From positions 20,962 through 84,961 of IMG/VR virus record IMGVR_UViG_3300012952_002053: a stretch of DNA of 64,000 bases; one strand, written 5' to 3'. The notes beneath the pieces were generated by a model. It made no database searches. It was given only the letters and a program-made list of their open reading frames with translations, and had not been told where the DNA came from. Made by a program: the position numbers and the translations under genes. Shown in pieces: positions 2,143 through 58,529 of the stretch. Numbering within the stretch: the stretch's first letter is position 1; each line of letters opens with the position of its first letter. The stretch comes from a virus (Duplodnaviria; Caudoviricetes).

Positions 2143-3487
2143 ACTTCACCTTTAATGCTGAACGACTAAATGGATCTTGTTTTGCAGTATTTAAAAATAA
2201 ATTTTTATTGATTTCTATTTTTTCTTGAACTTCTTTACTCCAAAATATGTCATGTATTTCTTCAATTGGCTTTTCTAAAAATTTTGATATCTCACGTTTA
2301 ATTAATTCTAAACGAACAGCATCGTCCTCAACTGTATCAAATGACTCGTCCCAAAACTCTGGAAACGTTGCATAGCCTAAACTTCTTAAATGATTGTAAG
2401 TCCTAGGTAATCCTACAACAAGCACAGGCAGTTCATAATAATATGCTTTGAATGTTTTTTCTGTAACAAAGCCTTCTATTATTTGTAATTGGTCATTATA
2501 TGTTCCCCAACCGTTAGGACTTTCAGAACCTACAGGATCATGACTGCCATAAAATAAAGTTTCGTTTGCTATCCAACTATATGTGTTTGATATAATTCTC
2601 CATGGAACAGAATCTTGATTACGCATAAAATTATGGTCAAACAGTCGTTTAAATTTTGGAGTTATTTCTTTTTCTAAGTATATTTCTTTTTCTCTGTACG
2701 AATAGTATATGTCATCTTTAAAATTTTCTATGCAATCAACAATTTCACTTCTATGTCTCTTCTCAAAATTATTTAAACAAATGGTTTTCTTTTTTCTTAT
2801 TTTGTTTTTAGTTTTTTCTACAATACGTTTAGGTAAATTCTTTTTGCCTGGACTGTCAAATATTCTAGCATGATATATTGTATAGTATTGTACATCTGCA
2901 TTTGGAAATGCTCTTCTGTATTTACGCACAATTTTATTATTGCACATTAAAAACTTTAATTTTTCTTCGGGCCAATTTCTAAAACAATGTTTAAACTTTT
3001 CAAGTCTATCAAAATCAAGATATGTGTCTGTGTACATGTCCCAACCATTTACAAAACAAAAATGTATGTTATCACAATCAAGTTCTACAATTTGTTCTAT
3101 TATGTTTTCATATGAAACATTTTTATCATTTAAAGGAAATGTAGATATGCCCGTGGTAAAATAAAATGTTTTGTCTGGATATGTTTCACATAATTTTTTA
3201 AGGTCTAAAAGTTTGTGGTCTTCCGACATTAATATTCTTGCTACAAAGACATTTGTAAAATTGCCTTCTGCTATGTATGGACTTATACTCACTAACTGAT
3301 TATTGTCTGCAAGTATTCTGCTATGGTCACTGGATAGTCCACCCATATCGTCACCTGTAGCCAATGTTGATACAACAAAGAATTCATCTATTTTGTCTAT
3401 TGTGTCTTTATACTTTAATGACTTAGTGCTTAGTATTTCGTTTATTCTCCAAACTAATGCGTCATTGTATGTTACATAGTCTAACAT
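2132..3487 (-). CDS. Putative glycosyltransferase (GT10-like motif), paralog 3
   Basis: TICLNNFEKRHRS and FVTEKTFKAYYYELPVLVVG...LGYATF...SFD. Start moved from 3535 to ATG 3487, just after the upstream stop. Confidence 0.65.
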   Translation of the reverse strand: MLDYVTYNDALVWRINEILSTKSLKYKDTIDKIDEFFVVSTLATGDDMGGLSSDHSRILADNNQLVSISPYIAEGNFTNVFVARILMSEDHKLLDLKKLCETYPDKTFYFTTGISTFPLNDKNVSYENIIEQIVELDCDNIHFCFVNGWDMYTDTYLDFDRLEKFKHCFRNWPEEKLKFLMCNNKIVRKYRRAFPNADVQYYTIYHARIFDSPGKKNLPKRIVEKTKNKIRKKKTICLNNFEKRHRSEIVDCIENFKDDIYYSYREKEIYLEKEITPKFKRLFDHNFMRNQDSVPWRIISNTYSWIANETLFYGSHDPVGSESPNGWGTYNDQLQIIEGFVTEKTFKAYYYELPVLVVGLPRTYNHLRSLGYATFPEFWDESFDTVEDDAVRLELIKREISKFLEKPIEEIHDIFWSKEVQEKIEINKNLFLNTAKQDPFSRSALKVKYGY

Positions 3488-3489
3488 GT

Positions 3490-4911
3490 TTACCTGCTGT
3501 TGTGTTTCGGGTCTGTGCGACTCCACCAGTCCCAAAGTTCTGGGTCCGCACTATATATTTCTTCTATTGTAATACTGTTACCTGGGTAACCGTCCTCTCT
3601 AATTCTTGCTATTTCTCTTTGCCATTGCCTACCATTGAAGAACTGATCCTCTGCTGTATCAGGAAACTGTTCTTGAAACGTAGGTGTATTTAATATTTGA
3701 TTAAGTTGATTAATTACTGTTTGCTGTTTGGGTGTTATAATAGGTGTAAGGTCTTCTATTAGTTTACGCACAATCCTATCTAATATGTGTCTGGGCCAAC
3801 TCATAAAACTAAACACAATGTCAGGATGGAATGCAAACATATTCTTTGTTTCTATTTTAACATCTAGTTCTAATGCATAGTTTACAAAATCACGTAAGCC
3901 AAATAGCCCTGGTCCTGTTAGTGTTAGATCCATTAGCATTTTATCGTTGCCGCCTGGTAATGCTACACCTTCTCTAAAGTTTTGGTCCCACTCTTCCCAA
4001 TCAAGTCCTGTTCTAATAAACTCTCCTATACGTCCTATACCGTCTATACTTGCACACATAGTCCAGTCTTTTGCTTGTGGTAACCAATCATATAAGTAAT
4101 GCTTTCCATAACGCACTCTGCTTAAATTACTATTGTATCTTAAATGAACTTTGTTTAAATTATTATCTTCAGCAAGTCTATTCATTGCTCGCCAATGTAT
4201 ATCGTACATTAAAGGTTCACCACCTACCCAATAAATTTCTTCTACAATACCTCTGCAAATGCTATCCCAAAACTCTTCTTCCACAACTTCCTTTTGAAAC
4301 TTTTCTATAATCTTTTTATTTTCCGGAACCATGAACGGTTGATTCTCAGGAGTCCAATGGTCATGTTTTCTTTTCTCAGCCTCCCAAGAAGAACTTAGTT
4401 GCTCTCCACACATTCTACATTTAAAGTTACATAAGTTGCTTACACGATAATCAAAACTGATAGGCTCCATTGTAGTATAGCCGTTTTCATCTGTACTATC
4501 AAAGCATTGGTCTATTTTGTCATTAAACAAGAATCCTGTAAACCATTGTCTGTAATTACTTTGACTTAACAAATTATCGTTACACACATCACATTGTGGA
4601 ATCTTTTCACCTGCCATAAGTTTCTTTCTTATATCCATCATGTATGGACTGTTCCAATGTTCTTTAAGTGTAACAACATGTTGCTTATAATCTTCTATAG
4701 TACCAGACTCTTTTACAGCACCATACTTTGCATCATTACTGGCATCTATATATTGTTTTTGGAATTTGTGTTCTTCTCTACTAGCACAACACATACGTCT
4801 TTCTGATTGTGGACTGATATAGGTATGGGTCCAAGGTGCTGTACAAAACACTTTGTTTTCTGAATCAGGATGAACGTTTCCGTGTTCCCATTTTGGTTTA
4901 ATTTTTTTCAT
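3490..4911 (-). CDS. Radical SAM protein with N-terminal twitch/SPASM-like domain
   Basis: CNFKCRMC (CxxxCxxC) and GGEP motifs; N-terminal FCTAPW...RMCC...CDVC. Confidence 0.9.
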   Translation of the reverse strand: MKKIKPKWEHGNVHPDSENKVFCTAPWTHTYISPQSERRMCCASREEHKFQKQYIDASNDAKYGAVKESGTIEDYKQHVVTLKEHWNSPYMMDIRKKLMAGEKIPQCDVCNDNLLSQSNYRQWFTGFLFNDKIDQCFDSTDENGYTTMEPISFDYRVSNLCNFKCRMCGEQLSSSWEAEKRKHDHWTPENQPFMVPENKKIIEKFQKEVVEEEFWDSICRGIVEEIYWVGGEPLMYDIHWRAMNRLAEDNNLNKVHLRYNSNLSRVRYGKHYLYDWLPQAKDWTMCASIDGIGRIGEFIRTGLDWEEWDQNFREGVALPGGNDKMLMDLTLTGPGLFGLRDFVNYALELDVKIETKNMFAFHPDIVFSFMSWPRHILDRIVRKLIEDLTPIITPKQQTVINQLNQILNTPTFQEQFPDTAEDQFFNGRQWQREIARIREDGYPGNSITIEEIYSADPELWDWWSRTDPKHNSR

Positions 4912-15170: not shown

Positions 15171-15410
15171 TTATCTCCAAGGTAACATTGTCATACCAAG
15201 TTGATTCAAACCCAACTCTAATAATATGAATACTAATAGACATGGGCCTAATTGCCATGCCCACCATTGCCAACCTTCTAAACTATCTACCCATTGTCTG
15301 AGTTTACTGTTTCGTGCTTTATCATATGCACCACTCTTTTCACCTATTCTGTTTGCCCAATAGTTTGGGTCAACCCAATCTTTTAATTTTTTTAAAAACT
15401 TAACTATCAT
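15171..15410 (-). CDS. Small membrane protein
   Basis: 79 aa, Trp-rich, with a C-terminal hydrophobic helix. Confidence 0.7.
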   Translation of the reverse strand: MIVKFLKKLKDWVDPNYWANRIGEKSGAYDKARNSKLRQWVDSLEGWQWWAWQLGPCLLVFILLELGLNQLGMTMLPWR

Positions 15411-15591
15411 CTATATGTTTCCAATCTTCTCTAAACAAACAGAAGCGAGTATTGCCATCTCCAGTTTCATATACAAACTGCATTCCTAATAGTTGTACAA
15501 CTGTGCCTTGGAATGTTCCGTTTAATCTACATGTATGCTCTATTAGGTCTCCTAATTCAGGTTGACGTTTTTTCTTACTAGGCATTAACAT
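15400..15591 (-). CDS. Hypothetical small protein (SH3-like pattern)
   Basis: 63-aa ORF in the operon; ELGDLIEH...GTVVQLL. Confidence 0.6.
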   Translation of the reverse strand: MLMPSKKKRQPELGDLIEHTCRLNGTFQGTVVQLLGMQFVYETGDGNTRFCLFREDWKHIDDS

Positions 15592-53557: not shown

Positions 53558-54577
53558 ATGGCAAACCTTTTTGAAAGGGCCGCATGTTTTACAGATATAC
53601 ATTACGGCTTAAAACAAAACAGTAGACAACATCTAAAAGATTGTCACAATTATGTCGATTGGTTTATTGCAGAAGCCAAGGCACGTGATTGTGAAACTTG
53701 TATCTTTTTAGGTGACTGGCATCACCACAGAGCAAGTATTAATATTGCAACTATGAATGCAACTATTAAGGACTTAAAAAAATTAAACGAATCATTTGAT
53801 ACTGTTTATATGATTTTAGGTAATCACGATTTATACTACAGAGAAAAACGTGACTTAAACAGCATTGAGTTTGCTAGGGACTTACCTAACATTGTTATGA
53901 TAGATGAACACTTCTTAGAAGGCAATGTTTCTATCATACCTTGGCTAGTTGGTGATGAACACAAACAACTAAACAAGATAGATTGCAAATACATGTTTGG
54001 ACATTTTGAGTTACCATACTTTAAAATGAATGCAATGGTAGAAATGCCAGACCATGGTGGAATAAAAGCAGAACATCTTGCAGGACCAGAGTATGTGTTT
54101 AGTGGACATTTTCACAAACGTCAATACAAAGGCAACATACATTATATAGGAAATGCTTTCCCACACAATTACGCAGACGTTGGAGACAACGAACGTGGTG
54201 CTATGTTTTTAACATGGGGAGAAGAACCACAGTATGTAAATTGGCCCGAATGTCCTAAGTATGTTGTAATGGGACTAAGACAATTATTAGAATCACCTGA
54301 AACATATTTAGATGAAAACACTCATGCAAGAATCAAACTTGATGTTAGTATCAGTTATGAAGAAGCAAACTTTTTGAGAGAAACATTTGCAGAAAAATTT
54401 AATGTAAGAGAATTACATTTACTTCCTGTAAAAGAAGACGAAGAAGTTTTTGAAGGCGATGATATAAAATTTGAAAGTGTGGACCAAATTGTAATTACAC
54501 AATTGGAAACAATTGAAAGTAATCTAGTTGAAACGGAACGATTAATTGAAATATATAGGAACATAGAAATTGCTTAA
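53558..54577 (+). CDS. gp47: Recombination endonuclease gp47 (Mre11/SbcD-like)
   Basis: Metallophosphoesterase motifs FTDIHYG, LGDWHH, GNHD, GHFE and SGHFH. Confidence 0.93.
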   Translation: MANLFERAACFTDIHYGLKQNSRQHLKDCHNYVDWFIAEAKARDCETCIFLGDWHHHRASINIATMNATIKDLKKLNESFDTVYMILGNHDLYYREKRDLNSIEFARDLPNIVMIDEHFLEGNVSIIPWLVGDEHKQLNKIDCKYMFGHFELPYFKMNAMVEMPDHGGIKAEHLAGPEYVFSGHFHKRQYKGNIHYIGNAFPHNYADVGDNERGAMFLTWGEEPQYVNWPECPKYVVMGLRQLLESPETYLDENTHARIKLDVSISYEEANFLRETFAEKFNVRELHLLPVKEDEEVFEGDDIKFESVDQIVITQLETIESNLVETERLIEIYRNIEIA

Positions 54578-56342
54578 GATTAAAAATGTAACAGCAAAAA
54601 ACTTTATGAGTGTGGGTAACAACCTACAAGCAGTTTCTTTTGATACTGAACAACTCACACTGGTACTAGGTCATAATTTAGATTTAGGTGGAGATGGCAG
54701 TAGAAATGGTACAGGTAAGACTACTATTATTAATGCACTAAGTTATGCATTATATGGTGAAGCATTAACAAACATTCGTAAAGACAATCTCATAAACAAA
54801 ACAAATGGTAAAGGAATGATTACCACTGTGGACTTTGAAATTAGTGGCAAAGAATACAGAATAGAACGTGGCAGAAGACCTAATGTCTTAAAGTTTTTTA
54901 TTGATGGTGTAGATTCACAAGACAATGAACAACAAGGAGACATGAGAGAAACACAAAAAGACATTGAAAAAATTATTGGTTTTCCTCACACAATGTTTAA
55001 GCATTTGATTGCACTTAACACATACACAGAACCTTTCCTTGCAATGAAGCAAAATGACCAACGTGCAATGATTGAGCAATTATTAGGTATAACAGAAATA
55101 AGTCAAAAGGCAGAAGTTCTAAAAGAGTTACTAAAACAAACACGTGATAGTATTAAAGAAGAAGAGATAAGAATTACAGCAGTAAACAATGCAAACAAAC
55201 GTGTAGAGCAAAACATTACAGAAATTGAAAGTAGAAGCAAAGCATGGAATAAAAACAAAGAAGATAAAGTTGCCGCTTTACAAAGTAGTTTAGATACTTT
55301 AGAACAAACGGATATAAAAGCAGAATTAGACTCGCATAGAAAAATAGTTGATATAAATGAAAAAACAACTAAGTTAGAAACTTTAAAAAATGATTTGCAA
55401 ACTAAAACTACTTCTATGAATAGAAGTGATGCAAAATTACAAGAACTAGAATCTAATTTAGAAAGTGCTAAAGCAGGTGTATGCCCGGCATGTGAACAAC
55501 CTACTGCCCATTTACATACACATGAAAAATATACAAAAGATTTAGAAGAGGATATCAAAGAAGAACAAAGATATAATGTAGGACTTGTAGACAACATTAG
55601 AGATTTGAATGCTGATATTAAAAAGTTAGGACATATTCCTGAAATGCCTACAACATTTTATAAAAATATGGAAGATGCTTTATCGCACAAACACAATGTT
55701 GAAACTATATCTGAACAAATTGAAGAAAAAATTAAAGAAGCAAATCCATATACAGAACAAGCAGAATCACTTAGAGATACAGGTATAGAAGAAATTAGTT
55801 ATGAGTTAATAAACGAATATACAAGTTTAAAAGAACACCAAGAGTTTTTGTATAAATTATTAACAAGCAAAGATAGTTTTATTAGAAAGAAAATTATTGA
55901 CCAAAATTTACAATACTTAAATTACAGATTAAGTCATTACTTAGACAAATTAGGATTACCGCATGATGTTAAATTTAACAGCGACTTAACAGTTGACATC
56001 ACAGAGTATGGTAGAGATTTAGACTTTGATAATTTAAGTAGGGGAGAACGTAATAGATTAATACTAGGTATGAGTTGGGCATTCAGAGACATATATGAAA
56101 GTCTTAATCAACCAATGAATTTGATGTGTATAGATGAACTGGTAGACAGTGGCATGGATACCACTGGTGTTGAAAATGCATTGGCAGTTCTTAAAAAGAT
56201 GGGAAGAGAGTCAAAGAAAAATGTGTTCTTAATATCACACAAAGAAGAATTACAGGGAAGAGTAAACAACGTTTTATATGTAGTAAAAGAAGGAGGTTTC
56301 ACAAGTTATAGTAATGACATAGAAATCCTCGAGGAAACATGA
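54570..56342 (+). CDS. gp46: Recombination ATPase gp46 (Rad50/SbcC-like)
   Basis: Walker A NGTGKTT, coiled coil with CPAC zinc hook, LSRGE signature, Walker B CIDE, ISH. Confidence 0.95.
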   Translation: MLKIKNVTAKNFMSVGNNLQAVSFDTEQLTLVLGHNLDLGGDGSRNGTGKTTIINALSYALYGEALTNIRKDNLINKTNGKGMITTVDFEISGKEYRIERGRRPNVLKFFIDGVDSQDNEQQGDMRETQKDIEKIIGFPHTMFKHLIALNTYTEPFLAMKQNDQRAMIEQLLGITEISQKAEVLKELLKQTRDSIKEEEIRITAVNNANKRVEQNITEIESRSKAWNKNKEDKVAALQSSLDTLEQTDIKAELDSHRKIVDINEKTTKLETLKNDLQTKTTSMNRSDAKLQELESNLESAKAGVCPACEQPTAHLHTHEKYTKDLEEDIKEEQRYNVGLVDNIRDLNADIKKLGHIPEMPTTFYKNMEDALSHKHNVETISEQIEEKIKEANPYTEQAESLRDTGIEEISYELINEYTSLKEHQEFLYKLLTSKDSFIRKKIIDQNLQYLNYRLSHYLDKLGLPHDVKFNSDLTVDITEYGRDLDFDNLSRGERNRLILGMSWAFRDIYESLNQPMNLMCIDELVDSGMDTTGVENALAVLKKMGRESKKNVFLISHKEELQGRVNNVLYVVKEGGFTSYSNDIEILEET

Positions 56343-57551: not shown

Positions 57552-57554
57552 CTA

Positions 57555-58010
57555 CTTTCTGTAACAGGCAAAAAATCGACACCCAGTCAGACTAACACAG
57601 GCAAACACATAGGCTCCACACCACCCCGCCGAGGCAGATAATATCGGTATCCTTGAGTGGTCCAATAGGGCGACGGATCTGGATTGTGGACGGCAAGATA
57701 CAAAAACGACACAGTATTAAAATGATACAGGCAATGAGAAAAAGCAACCTGTAAGCCAATAGGACTGAACTCTACAAGGTCTTAATGGTTTCCGTGAGAT
57801 TAGTGACGGTAGTGTATGGGGACAGAAGGCTCACCGGTTCCTAGTAGCACCCGAGTTAGAGATGACGATTCTCATCATGATGACTTATTTTTTCACCCGG
57901 CAACGGGTGAATTATGACTCAACTATCATGATAACGGTAAAACTTTCCAACAAAGAACGATATGAATGAAATGAATGAGTTAAGCAGTTGGGAAAGACAC
58001 GAAGTGTCTA
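57555..58010 (+). ncRNA. Candidate large structured non-coding RNA
   Basis: ORF-free region, GC-richer than its flanks, with many nested helices and a perfect 8-bp GCAA-capped hairpin (57892-57911). Strand inferred from the GNRA loop and the upstream operon. Confidence 0.65.
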
Positions 58011-58529
58011 TAAAGTAGAAAGCATTTCAACTGTGTCTTTATAAGATAATCTCAAATTAACAGTATATAAGTAAAAATCTCTATTTAAGTTATGCTTGTT
58101 TGCTCCGTGTGATTTAGTTACATCCAATATCATCAACTCTCCAGGGTTTAACGACTTGTTATGCGAAGCATCTTCATGGATAATTTCTAAGGGTTCATCT
58201 TCTAGGTTAAACATTATATTGGTTTTTCGCGTCAATGGATTTTTCCAACCCATTAAGTGGTCATTGTGTAAATCTACTTTTTTGTCCGCTTTGACAGTTT
58301 CTATGGCAACACTATGTTCTTCTACGTTTAACGGCAAAGGTGTTACTTTTACAATTTGGTTTTGCAACGCAAGAGGCATATCGCGGAGCAAAAAAATGTG
58401 TTGCGCCATATAGTCACCGGTGTCGCCGCTTTGATGAAAAGGATTTTCTGTGCGGAAATTACTAATAGGCTCTATGAGTTCACGCATGGCGCCAACATCA
58501 TAATCCCAATTTAAAATAGTGCTATACAT
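58008..58529 (-). CDS. 2OG-Fe(II) oxygenase/cupin-like protein
   Basis: VDLHND (HxD)...TNIMFNL...LDVTKSHG (distal His). Confidence 0.6.
   Translation of the reverse strand: MYSTILNWDYDVGAMRELIEPISNFRTENPFHQSGDTGDYMAQHIFLLRDMPLALQNQIVKVTPLPLNVEEHSVAIETVKADKKVDLHNDHLMGWKNPLTRKTNIMFNLEDEPLEIIHEDASHNKSLNPGELMILDVTKSHGANKHNLNRDFYLYTVNLRLSYKDTVEMLSTL

Follow-up and report, generated by a model that had tools for sequence, protein, structure and literature searches.

Comparative evidence for a doubly knotted RNA with twin sequence boxes, from an uncatalogued family, beside a GIY-YIG nuclease gene of marine T4-like phages

Large and intricate RNAs of no known job are rare, and GOLLD, ROOL, OLE and HEARO have repeatedly opened new biology. 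GOLLD (RF01998) and ROOL (RF03087), like the RNA described here, are several hundred bases long, have many helices as well as pseudoknots, are carried by phages or integrated elements, and are of no known function; a GNRA loop and a receptor-like internal loop are also common to them and to the present RNA. They nevertheless show no sequence or model similarity to it, and it is the smaller RNA. Neither the twin-box rule nor the nuclease or integrase neighbour reported below is known as a feature of GOLLD or ROOL. The HEARO/omega RNAs (of IscB and TnpB) and the IS110 bridge RNAs offer a different likeness, since they too are structured RNAs adjoining the gene of a mobile-element enzyme that cuts or joins DNA. 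For the enzyme encoded beside the present RNA, the comparison is with the Seg proteins and I-TevI, with which it has the catalytic fold in common and whose genes likewise lie between conserved genes and in varied contexts. Finally, Methylobacterium-1 (RF01712) is an orphan motif of 103 nt described in Methylobacterium and in marine metagenomes (Weinberg et al. 2010, PMC2864571).

The window analysed here, a stretch of 64,000 nt, belongs to an IMG/VR virus record of 85 kb from an uncultured marine T4-like myovirus. The genes for gp47 and gp46 (SbcD/SbcC-like) are located at 53558-56342 and are followed by an unknown ORF of 263 aa and by the gene for a GIY-YIG protein of 142 aa. With 456 nt, the region 57552-58007 is the window's longest run lacking any open frame of 90 codons or more, and its GC content is 0.44 versus 0.34 window-wide. 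The gene at 58008-58529 is convergent to the RNA gene, and its stop codon is overlapped by the terminal helix of the RNA (P8; Table 1). An earlier note on this DNA, made from its letters alone, had drawn attention to a long gene-free region richer in GC than its surroundings, and this description holds; all the sequences that it quoted were also found at the positions it gave. One other stretch of more than 200 nt without a long open frame is present in the window (15191-15577; 387 nt, GC 0.36). Inspection of coding potential found no ORF in the RNA region, and the compensatory changes described below are incompatible with a conserved reading frame; a protein-coding reading was therefore rejected. 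Among cultured phages, no DNA match was obtained.

When the sequence of the region was folded on its own, the minimum free energy was -112.6 kcal/mol, with z-scores of -0.89 for the + strand and +0.28 for the - strand, each strand being compared separately with dinucleotide shuffles. Since folding of the lone sequence was no better than chance on either strand, helices recognised by eye are not evidence by themselves. Conserved DNA was found directly behind the GIY-YIG gene in many of the 80 viral contigs with homologues that were examined, out of at least 589. A scan with the most conserved motif of the RNA itself, independent of the protein, retrieved more than 100 further loci, and iterated nhmmer searches yielded a 436-column profile that matched about 150 loci. 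In all, the stretch proved conserved in more than 150 related phage contigs, with compensatory changes in its helices. Twenty-four distinct members of the clade could be aligned cleanly; in their core (57726-57861), 42 pairs were modelled, belonging to P3, P4, P5 and the pseudoknots PK1 and PK2, with 97.4% of the cells paired and double changes in 27 of the pairs. None of 500 shuffles reached these values, and sliding the partners by 1-3 columns left 33-50% paired. Some G-U pairs (57818:57842 and 57821:57839 among them) were invariant in the core alignment, indicating that the RNA is read from the + strand. These pairs agree with the earlier argument that G-U wobbles favour RNA, and the proposal of a large structured non-coding RNA is borne out by its conservation and by the compensatory changes seen across related phage contigs. 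Judged from these sequence comparisons, which demonstrate its structure, 57552-58009 (+) is a real RNA gene of about 400-460 bases, doubly knotted and belonging to an uncatalogued family. The RNA gene proper would span 57606-58009 (+), preceded by a variable leader starting at 57552, and would fold into eight helices and two pseudoknots (Table 1).

Table 1. Positions in the window of the GIY-YIG gene, the RNA gene and the parts of the predicted RNA
Feature	Position	Strand	Observations
GIY-YIG nuclease gene, 142 aa	57123-57551	+	stand-alone, I-TevI/Seg-type catalytic domain only; linked neighbour of the RNA gene
Variable leader	57552-57605	+	ATAACTA, GGCA(A/C)A repeats, GAC..GUC hairpin 57578-57588 (alignment of 60 leaders)
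5' domain	57606-57718	+	P1 enclosing P1a, P1b and P1c, then P2; compensatory changes
P3 hairpin	57726-57753	+	4 of 6 pairs compensatory
P4 long hairpin	57754-57790	+	10 of 12 pairs compensatory
Pseudoknot PK2	57770-57774 (CUCUA, P4 loop) : 57857-57861 (UAGAG)	+	4 of 5 pairs compensatory, 95.8% paired
Pseudoknot PK1	57794-57798 (GUGAG) : 57830-57834 (CUCAC, P5 loop)	+	within the clade, 100% paired with compensatory changes in 3 of 5 pairs
P5 composite hairpin	57807-57853	+	96-100% paired, 6 pairs compensatory
Module A with twin box 1	57859-57884	+	box CAUGAUGAC at 57876-57884; identity-type covariation with box 2
P6 hairpin, GCAA tetraloop	57892-57911	+	model columns 299:312 100% paired
Module B with twin box 2	57912-57935	+	box CAUGAUAAC at 57927-57935
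P7 stem	57944-51/57987-94	+	7 of 8 pairs compensatory; encloses a GA-rich repeated segment
P8 terminal hairpin, GAA loop	57995-58009	+	3 of 6 pairs compensatory

The 5' domain is peculiar to the clade of the window; the RNA of other clades begins near P2/P3. Within it, P1 (57615-20/57685-90) encloses P1a (57629-32/57644-47), P1b (57649-52/57681-84) and P1c (57660-63/57668-71), and P2 is formed by 57697-701/57714-18. The loop of P3, of 16-18 nt, is nearly invariant (GC..UGAGAAA.AGCAAC) and constitutes the family signature; its motif was the one that retrieved the more than 100 loci. The composite hairpin P5 consists of three paired segments (57807-09/57851-53, 57812-15/57847-50 and 57817-23/57837-43), with a tetraloop-receptor-like internal loop before the third. 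PK1 was the sole helix found by RNAalifold in 50 diverse sequences, with GC, UA, AU, GU and CG all present at single positions. The third stem pair of P6 covaries with position 57804, the variable N of a GNGA word at 57803-06: in the model, column 201 was the same as column 312 in 93% of the sequences, and complementary to column 299 in 93%. The N of this word was always that found in the 3' strand of P6 (57907-57910), being U, A or C depending on the lineage. Both GNGA and the P6 3' strand are complementary to the P6 5' strand, which could allow an alternative pairing or a switch. P8 is likely to be the 3' end of the RNA; no T-run follows the hairpin, and a consensus scan did not call a terminator there.

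Some details of the variable parts were also recorded. In the leader of the window and in homologous leaders, a GGCA(C/U)A(C)A unit is repeated in tandem two to four times and a mini-hairpin, AGACACCAAGUC, is conserved; in most clade members, the stop codon of the nuclease gene is overlapped by a (G/T)ATAA(C/G/T)TA word. When ATAACTA was considered as a general promoter, the word was not found enriched elsewhere in the window. The GA-rich interior of P7 (57952-57986) bears short direct or inverted repeats specific to each lineage, here AUGAAUGA twice, together with a conserved closing pair (57966:57972) around a UGAAA loop.

The earlier note had proposed ten pairings by eye, of which seven hold, one is ambiguous and two are displaced by pseudoknots. 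Compensatory changes in relatives were found for the pairing TCCACA/TGTGGA (now P1), TACAGG/CCTGTA (57726-31/57748-53), the AGCCA..TAGGAC hairpin (57754-57790), GTGTA-TGGGGA/TTCCTA..GCAC (57812-57850), the GCAA hairpin and the terminal hairpin. By contrast, CCGT/ACGG showed 0 compensatory changes and 6 broken cells; its bases are used instead by PK1 and by an extension of P5 (CGG/CCG) for which three independent double changes were detected. The GAGTTA/TGACTC pairing, two bases of which are taken by PK2, was 85% paired with no real covariation. The ambiguous pairing is GATGA/TCATC, whose register shifts between lineages.

The twin boxes are unpaired and flank P6. Their word differs between phages, but the two copies within an RNA match. 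At their variable flanks, the boxes were identical in 83 of 86 distinct sequences, which include 20 box types, when about 10 would be expected after exchanging boxes among sequences; each sequence was scored on its best-matching word pair, so that the observed figure is somewhat inflated. The words seen include …AUGAU…, GAGAU, GUGAU and UUGAU and, in other clades, AGAUGAU, AGAUAAU, GAAUAAU, ACAUGAA, AAAUGAA, GGAUAAU and more, with a constant A-U-R-A core. The distance from box to box ranged from 46 to 72 nt across the family. The rule demonstrated by these data is one of identity, not of complementarity, which is unusual and provides a concrete handle for experiments. It suggests a single partner that reads the same word twice. 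Several candidate partners were considered. Pairing of box 1 with box 2 was rejected (62% paired, no covariation), as was a DNA-level dimer site with fixed helical spacing, ruled out by the 46-72 nt range. Pairing with a tRNA anticodon loop was discarded by reasoning only, the flanks of the boxes not fitting loop positions 32 and 37. Within the RNA, even allowing for wobble pairs, no covarying site complementary to the boxes was found, the sole match being the invariant AUUAUG of module B. In the window, neither the box sequence nor its complement was enriched, and no partner was found.

One way of reading these identical boxes is as paired 'handshake' guides, each pairing with a different member of a pair of DNA (or RNA) sites whose short core is the same. 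We consider this very unlikely. If it were true, the RNA would join two molecules for the enzyme encoded beside it, namely a GIY-YIG or PD-(D/E)XK nuclease in lytic phages and a tyrosine or serine recombinase in integrated elements; the identity of the boxes would mirror the need for identical cores in two recombining sites, and the outcome would be a bridge-RNA-like, RNA-programmed DNA transaction common to unrelated enzymes. A search for a variable guide-like segment with a complement, which the earlier note had anticipated, found none in the RNA and none enriched in the window, and a guide role for the RNA is not supported.

The boxes also bear on the alternative raised in the earlier note, a replication-origin element. 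In such an element, the folded transcript would hybridise with its own DNA and prime replication. Persistent RNA-DNA hybrids prime replication in the case of ColE1 RNA II and of the T4 oriF/oriG R-loops. Identical boxes would allow pairing with the template at two registers, the leader has iteron-like GGCACA repeats, and the locus adjoins the recombination-replication genes gp46/gp47. However, none of the analyses made here supports such an element: changes of skew in the window track gene strand only, the spacing of the boxes varies over the range given above, and the bacterial copies of the RNA, described below, adjoin integrases and not replication genes. An origin function therefore appears most doubtful.

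The protein encoded upstream of the RNA matched the Pfam family SegE_GIY-YIG (PF19835) with an E-value of 6.6e-34. Its AlphaFold2 model (pLDDT 91) had as its top PDB match the catalytic domain of I-TevI (1LN0, probability 0.96), and the fold also matched 1MK0. Residues Y24, Y35, R89, E105 and N122 were invariant in 24 homologues. The motifs, the catalytic Arg, Glu and Asn residues and the alpha-beta fold thus place the protein in the I-TevI/Seg branch of the GIY-YIG superfamily. No sequence relation to T4 endonuclease II or to other solved GIY-YIG proteins was detected. The protein, 142 aa in total, is a catalytic domain with a basic beta-hairpin insert; unlike the Seg proteins and I-TevI, it has no C-terminal DNA-binding domain, and its gene is fixed in the clade of the window, not sporadic. 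This nuclease family corresponds to PHROG 447, matched by 415 phage records and widely labelled 'NAD synthetase' in cyanophage records; the label looks like a propagated misannotation of the GIY-YIG domain.

To assess how closely the nuclease gene and the RNA are linked, loci were sampled by anchoring on gp46, that is, on neither partner. In the 47 loci with enough downstream DNA, the two were adjacent and co-oriented without exception (47/47), and in about a third of them the pair was inverted as a unit. No degraded GIY-YIG copies were seen, and no nuclease-free allele was present among these 47 close relatives. Fixation of this kind is more suggestive of two genes maintained as a module than of a sporadic selfish nuclease. 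The RNA could be a scaffold, a specificity factor, an inhibitor or an antitoxin-like regulator for the adjacent GIY-YIG protein, and might offset the DNA-binding domain that the protein lacks. The fixed, co-oriented and co-inverting pair speaks in favour of such a module, as do the reduction of the protein to a catalytic domain with its basic insert and the presence, at the same place in other loci, of further enzymes that cut or join DNA (PD-(D/E)XK, HNH, integrases). The wider distribution of the two genes, however, argues against it. The cultured Methylophilales phage Melnitz encodes a 73% identical protein adjoining nrdB, and the RNA is nowhere in its genome; in many contigs, proteins of 68-77% identity that have the same basic insert are encoded in other surroundings, from which the RNA is absent. 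Conversely, the RNA was found without any GIY-YIG gene in about 10 phage loci and in several bacterial loci. The two genes are divergent in one clade, and another gene can intervene: in locus L107 (4297-5328), a gene of the GMP reductase/IMPDH family and an unknown 142-aa ORF lie between the GIY-YIG gene and the RNA. No GIY-YIG residue followed the box sequence beyond an association at the level of lineages. Moreover, an endonuclease of the PD-(D/E)XK type (PF24608) occupies the place of the GIY-YIG protein beside the RNA in loci L101 and L161, and a specific ribonucleoprotein would not be expected to accept nucleases of unrelated folds. A nuclease-RNA module is therefore possible but not probable. 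In L101 the PD-(D/E)XK gene (3298-3867) is co-oriented with the RNA; in L161 (2272-2862) it is divergent.

These observations demonstrate that the RNA is independent of the nuclease, and they do not support the proposal of the earlier note that it belongs to an RNA-guided or RNA-associated GIY-YIG nuclease: each was found without the other, PD-(D/E)XK can replace GIY-YIG, and one clade has the genes divergent. The obligate co-occurrence of RNA and effector that would be expected of an omega-type RNA was not observed, though the pair is fixed in the clade of the window. The likeness to HEARO/omega and bridge RNAs is further limited by the want of a guide complement, by neighbouring enzymes of unrelated folds, and by the absence of an Rfam match. 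Given the fixed and co-inverting pair, some functional tie between RNA and nuclease is possible in this clade.

The same distribution bears on whether the region might act in cis, as a 3' untranslated region that controls the stability or expression of the nuclease mRNA. The RNA begins at the stop codon of the nuclease gene and is co-oriented with it, and a scan for sigma-70-type consensus sequences, itself uninformative, found no promoter or terminator between them. Nonetheless, in some loci with the RNA the gene is missing or divergent, in others the RNA follows unrelated genes, and 400 bases with two pseudoknots far exceed what such a role would need. This makes an untranslated region extremely improbable.

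The nuclease gene also differs from the phage backbone in its divergence. Its product remains at 70-77% identity to that of the window over a range in which gp46 goes from 86% down to 53%. GIY-YIG and gp46 identities were uncorrelated in the close clade (rho 0.00), compared with a rho of 0.63 for gp46 and gp47. These figures suggest that the nuclease gene moves independently of the phage backbone, by horizontal exchange. The gene is sporadic over distant clades and contexts, and it is fixed in the close clade. The RNA gene could be a mere homing target of freestanding endonucleases, in which case the neighbourhood would reflect the genetics of selfish elements and be uninformative on the job of the RNA. 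Consistent with this, nucleases of different folds adjoin the same RNA, the GIY-YIG protein has the fold of I-TevI, and its gene, present in many unrelated contexts, diverges independently of the phage backbone. Against it stands the count of 0 nuclease-free alleles among the 47 close relatives, with no decayed copies seen, and we regard a mere homing target as unlikely.

The reading that we favour, with confidence about evenly balanced, is that of an autonomous, trans-acting structured RNA, transcribed from the + strand, with a linked and swappable nuclease neighbour. It would act in trans as a folded scaffold presenting two unpaired, identical boxes of 7-9 nt on either side of a GNRA hairpin. 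As docking sites the boxes would be equivalent, each receiving one of two copies of a single sequence-reading partner, which may be a nucleic acid or else a dimeric protein or nuclease. The GIY-YIG gene would be freestanding and linked, and its product would not be an obligate protein partner of the RNA; the linkage would probably reflect a tendency of nuclease genes of this sort to insert next to conserved targets. The setting would most likely be a conflict between phage and host or between phages, with the RNA perhaps acting as a decoy. The steady position of the RNA beside enzymes that cut or join DNA raises, and does not establish, the idea of an RNA-assisted DNA transaction.

In searches of Rfam at gathering and loose thresholds, no match was obtained for the window, for a sub-window or for 14 family members (the latter at E 1). 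ARAGORN found no tRNA or tmRNA in the window, and Rfam gave no tmRNA match. The covariance models of GOLLD, ROOL, OLE and raiA did not match either. A group I or group II intron was rejected: there was no Rfam match, and there are no exons to join, given the overlap of the nuclease gene with the ORF before it and the convergent orientation of the gene that follows. The earlier note, which could not match the RNA by eye to a tmRNA, an RNase P or an intron core, is thus borne out, and its likening to ornate phage RNAs such as ROOL or GOLLD is fair as a description of kind. Polynucleobacter-1 (RF01718) had no match in the record at E 10, nor in the bacterial relatives at E 1.

The relation to Methylobacterium-1 is of another sort. 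RF01712 did not match the window or the whole record even at E 10, nor any of 14 other phage members at E 1. Its architecture was nonetheless recognised in the window at 57697-57797, with a hairpin, an A-rich linker, a second hairpin (P3), a long hairpin (P4) and CCGU. RF01712 spans about a quarter of the RNA of the window and lacks P5, the pseudoknots, the twin boxes and the 3' domain. The two are linked by a Polynucleobacter locus (L290), which scored 49.9 bits with RF01712, above the Rfam gathering threshold of 40 bits for membership, and which carries the 18-nt P3 loop of the family. With a covariance model of the phage core, L290 scored 40.7 bits; L287, a distant but true member from a phage with a SegE GIY-YIG gene, scored 34.3 bits, and the bare 18-mer 14.8 bits. 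The majority form of the 18-nt loop, from which the window differs at two bases, occurred 20 times in prokaryote assemblies containing one genome per species. Nine of these occurrences were the bare word (14.8 bits with the phage-core model); the other 11 scored 24-41 bits, and in them the word lies inside a P3 stem, after which come a P4-like hairpin and UUCCG. In a Sphingomonadaceae locus (L283), PK1 (GCUGG:CUAGC), PK2 (CCCUGU:ACAGGG), the tetraloop hairpin and the twin boxes are all retained; the box, CUUCAAGAU, is present twice, 59 nt apart, and is absent elsewhere in 8 kb. Full-length relatives such as this one are located close to integrase or recombinase genes. When the 18-mer was masked, the similarity of the bacterial loci in nhmmer searches was no longer significant, and L287 was the one locus to keep its significance; support for the bacterial link consequently comes from structure-aware scoring and from the common architecture. 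Taken together, RF01712 and the bacterial loci are probably distant kin of the RNA of the window, not members of its family.

Six of the bacterial loci have a gene for a tyrosine integrase, serine recombinase or HNH nuclease at a distance of 0.1-2 kb, mostly upstream and co-oriented. These loci (L290, L294, L279, L296, L281 and L288) come from Polynucleobacter, Oxalobacteraceae, Burkholderiaceae, Alsobacter and Erythrobacteraceae. The Oxalobacteraceae include one isolate with three copies of the RNA core, and in L288 and L285 a tRNA gene is located a few kb away, as expected for an integration site. The comparisons demonstrate a wide spread in mobile elements: the family is abundant in T4-like phages of the ocean, with hundreds of contigs and fixation in one clade, and extends, through probable distant kin, to integrated elements of Alpha- and Betaproteobacteria. 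In doing so it appears to absorb an orphan motif that was catalogued in 2010 as a fragment only (RF01712).

A third variant of the RNA, of about 520 nt, was present in loci L004, L008, L010, L014, L020 and L025 (for example, at L004:3424-3960). The gp46 of the phages that carry it is as near to that of the window as the gp46 of clade 1. In its twin-box module, 3' domain and terminal hairpin the variant agrees with the other RNAs; its 5' two-thirds are different and lack the P3 loop signature. Judging by this variant, the RNA family looks modular.
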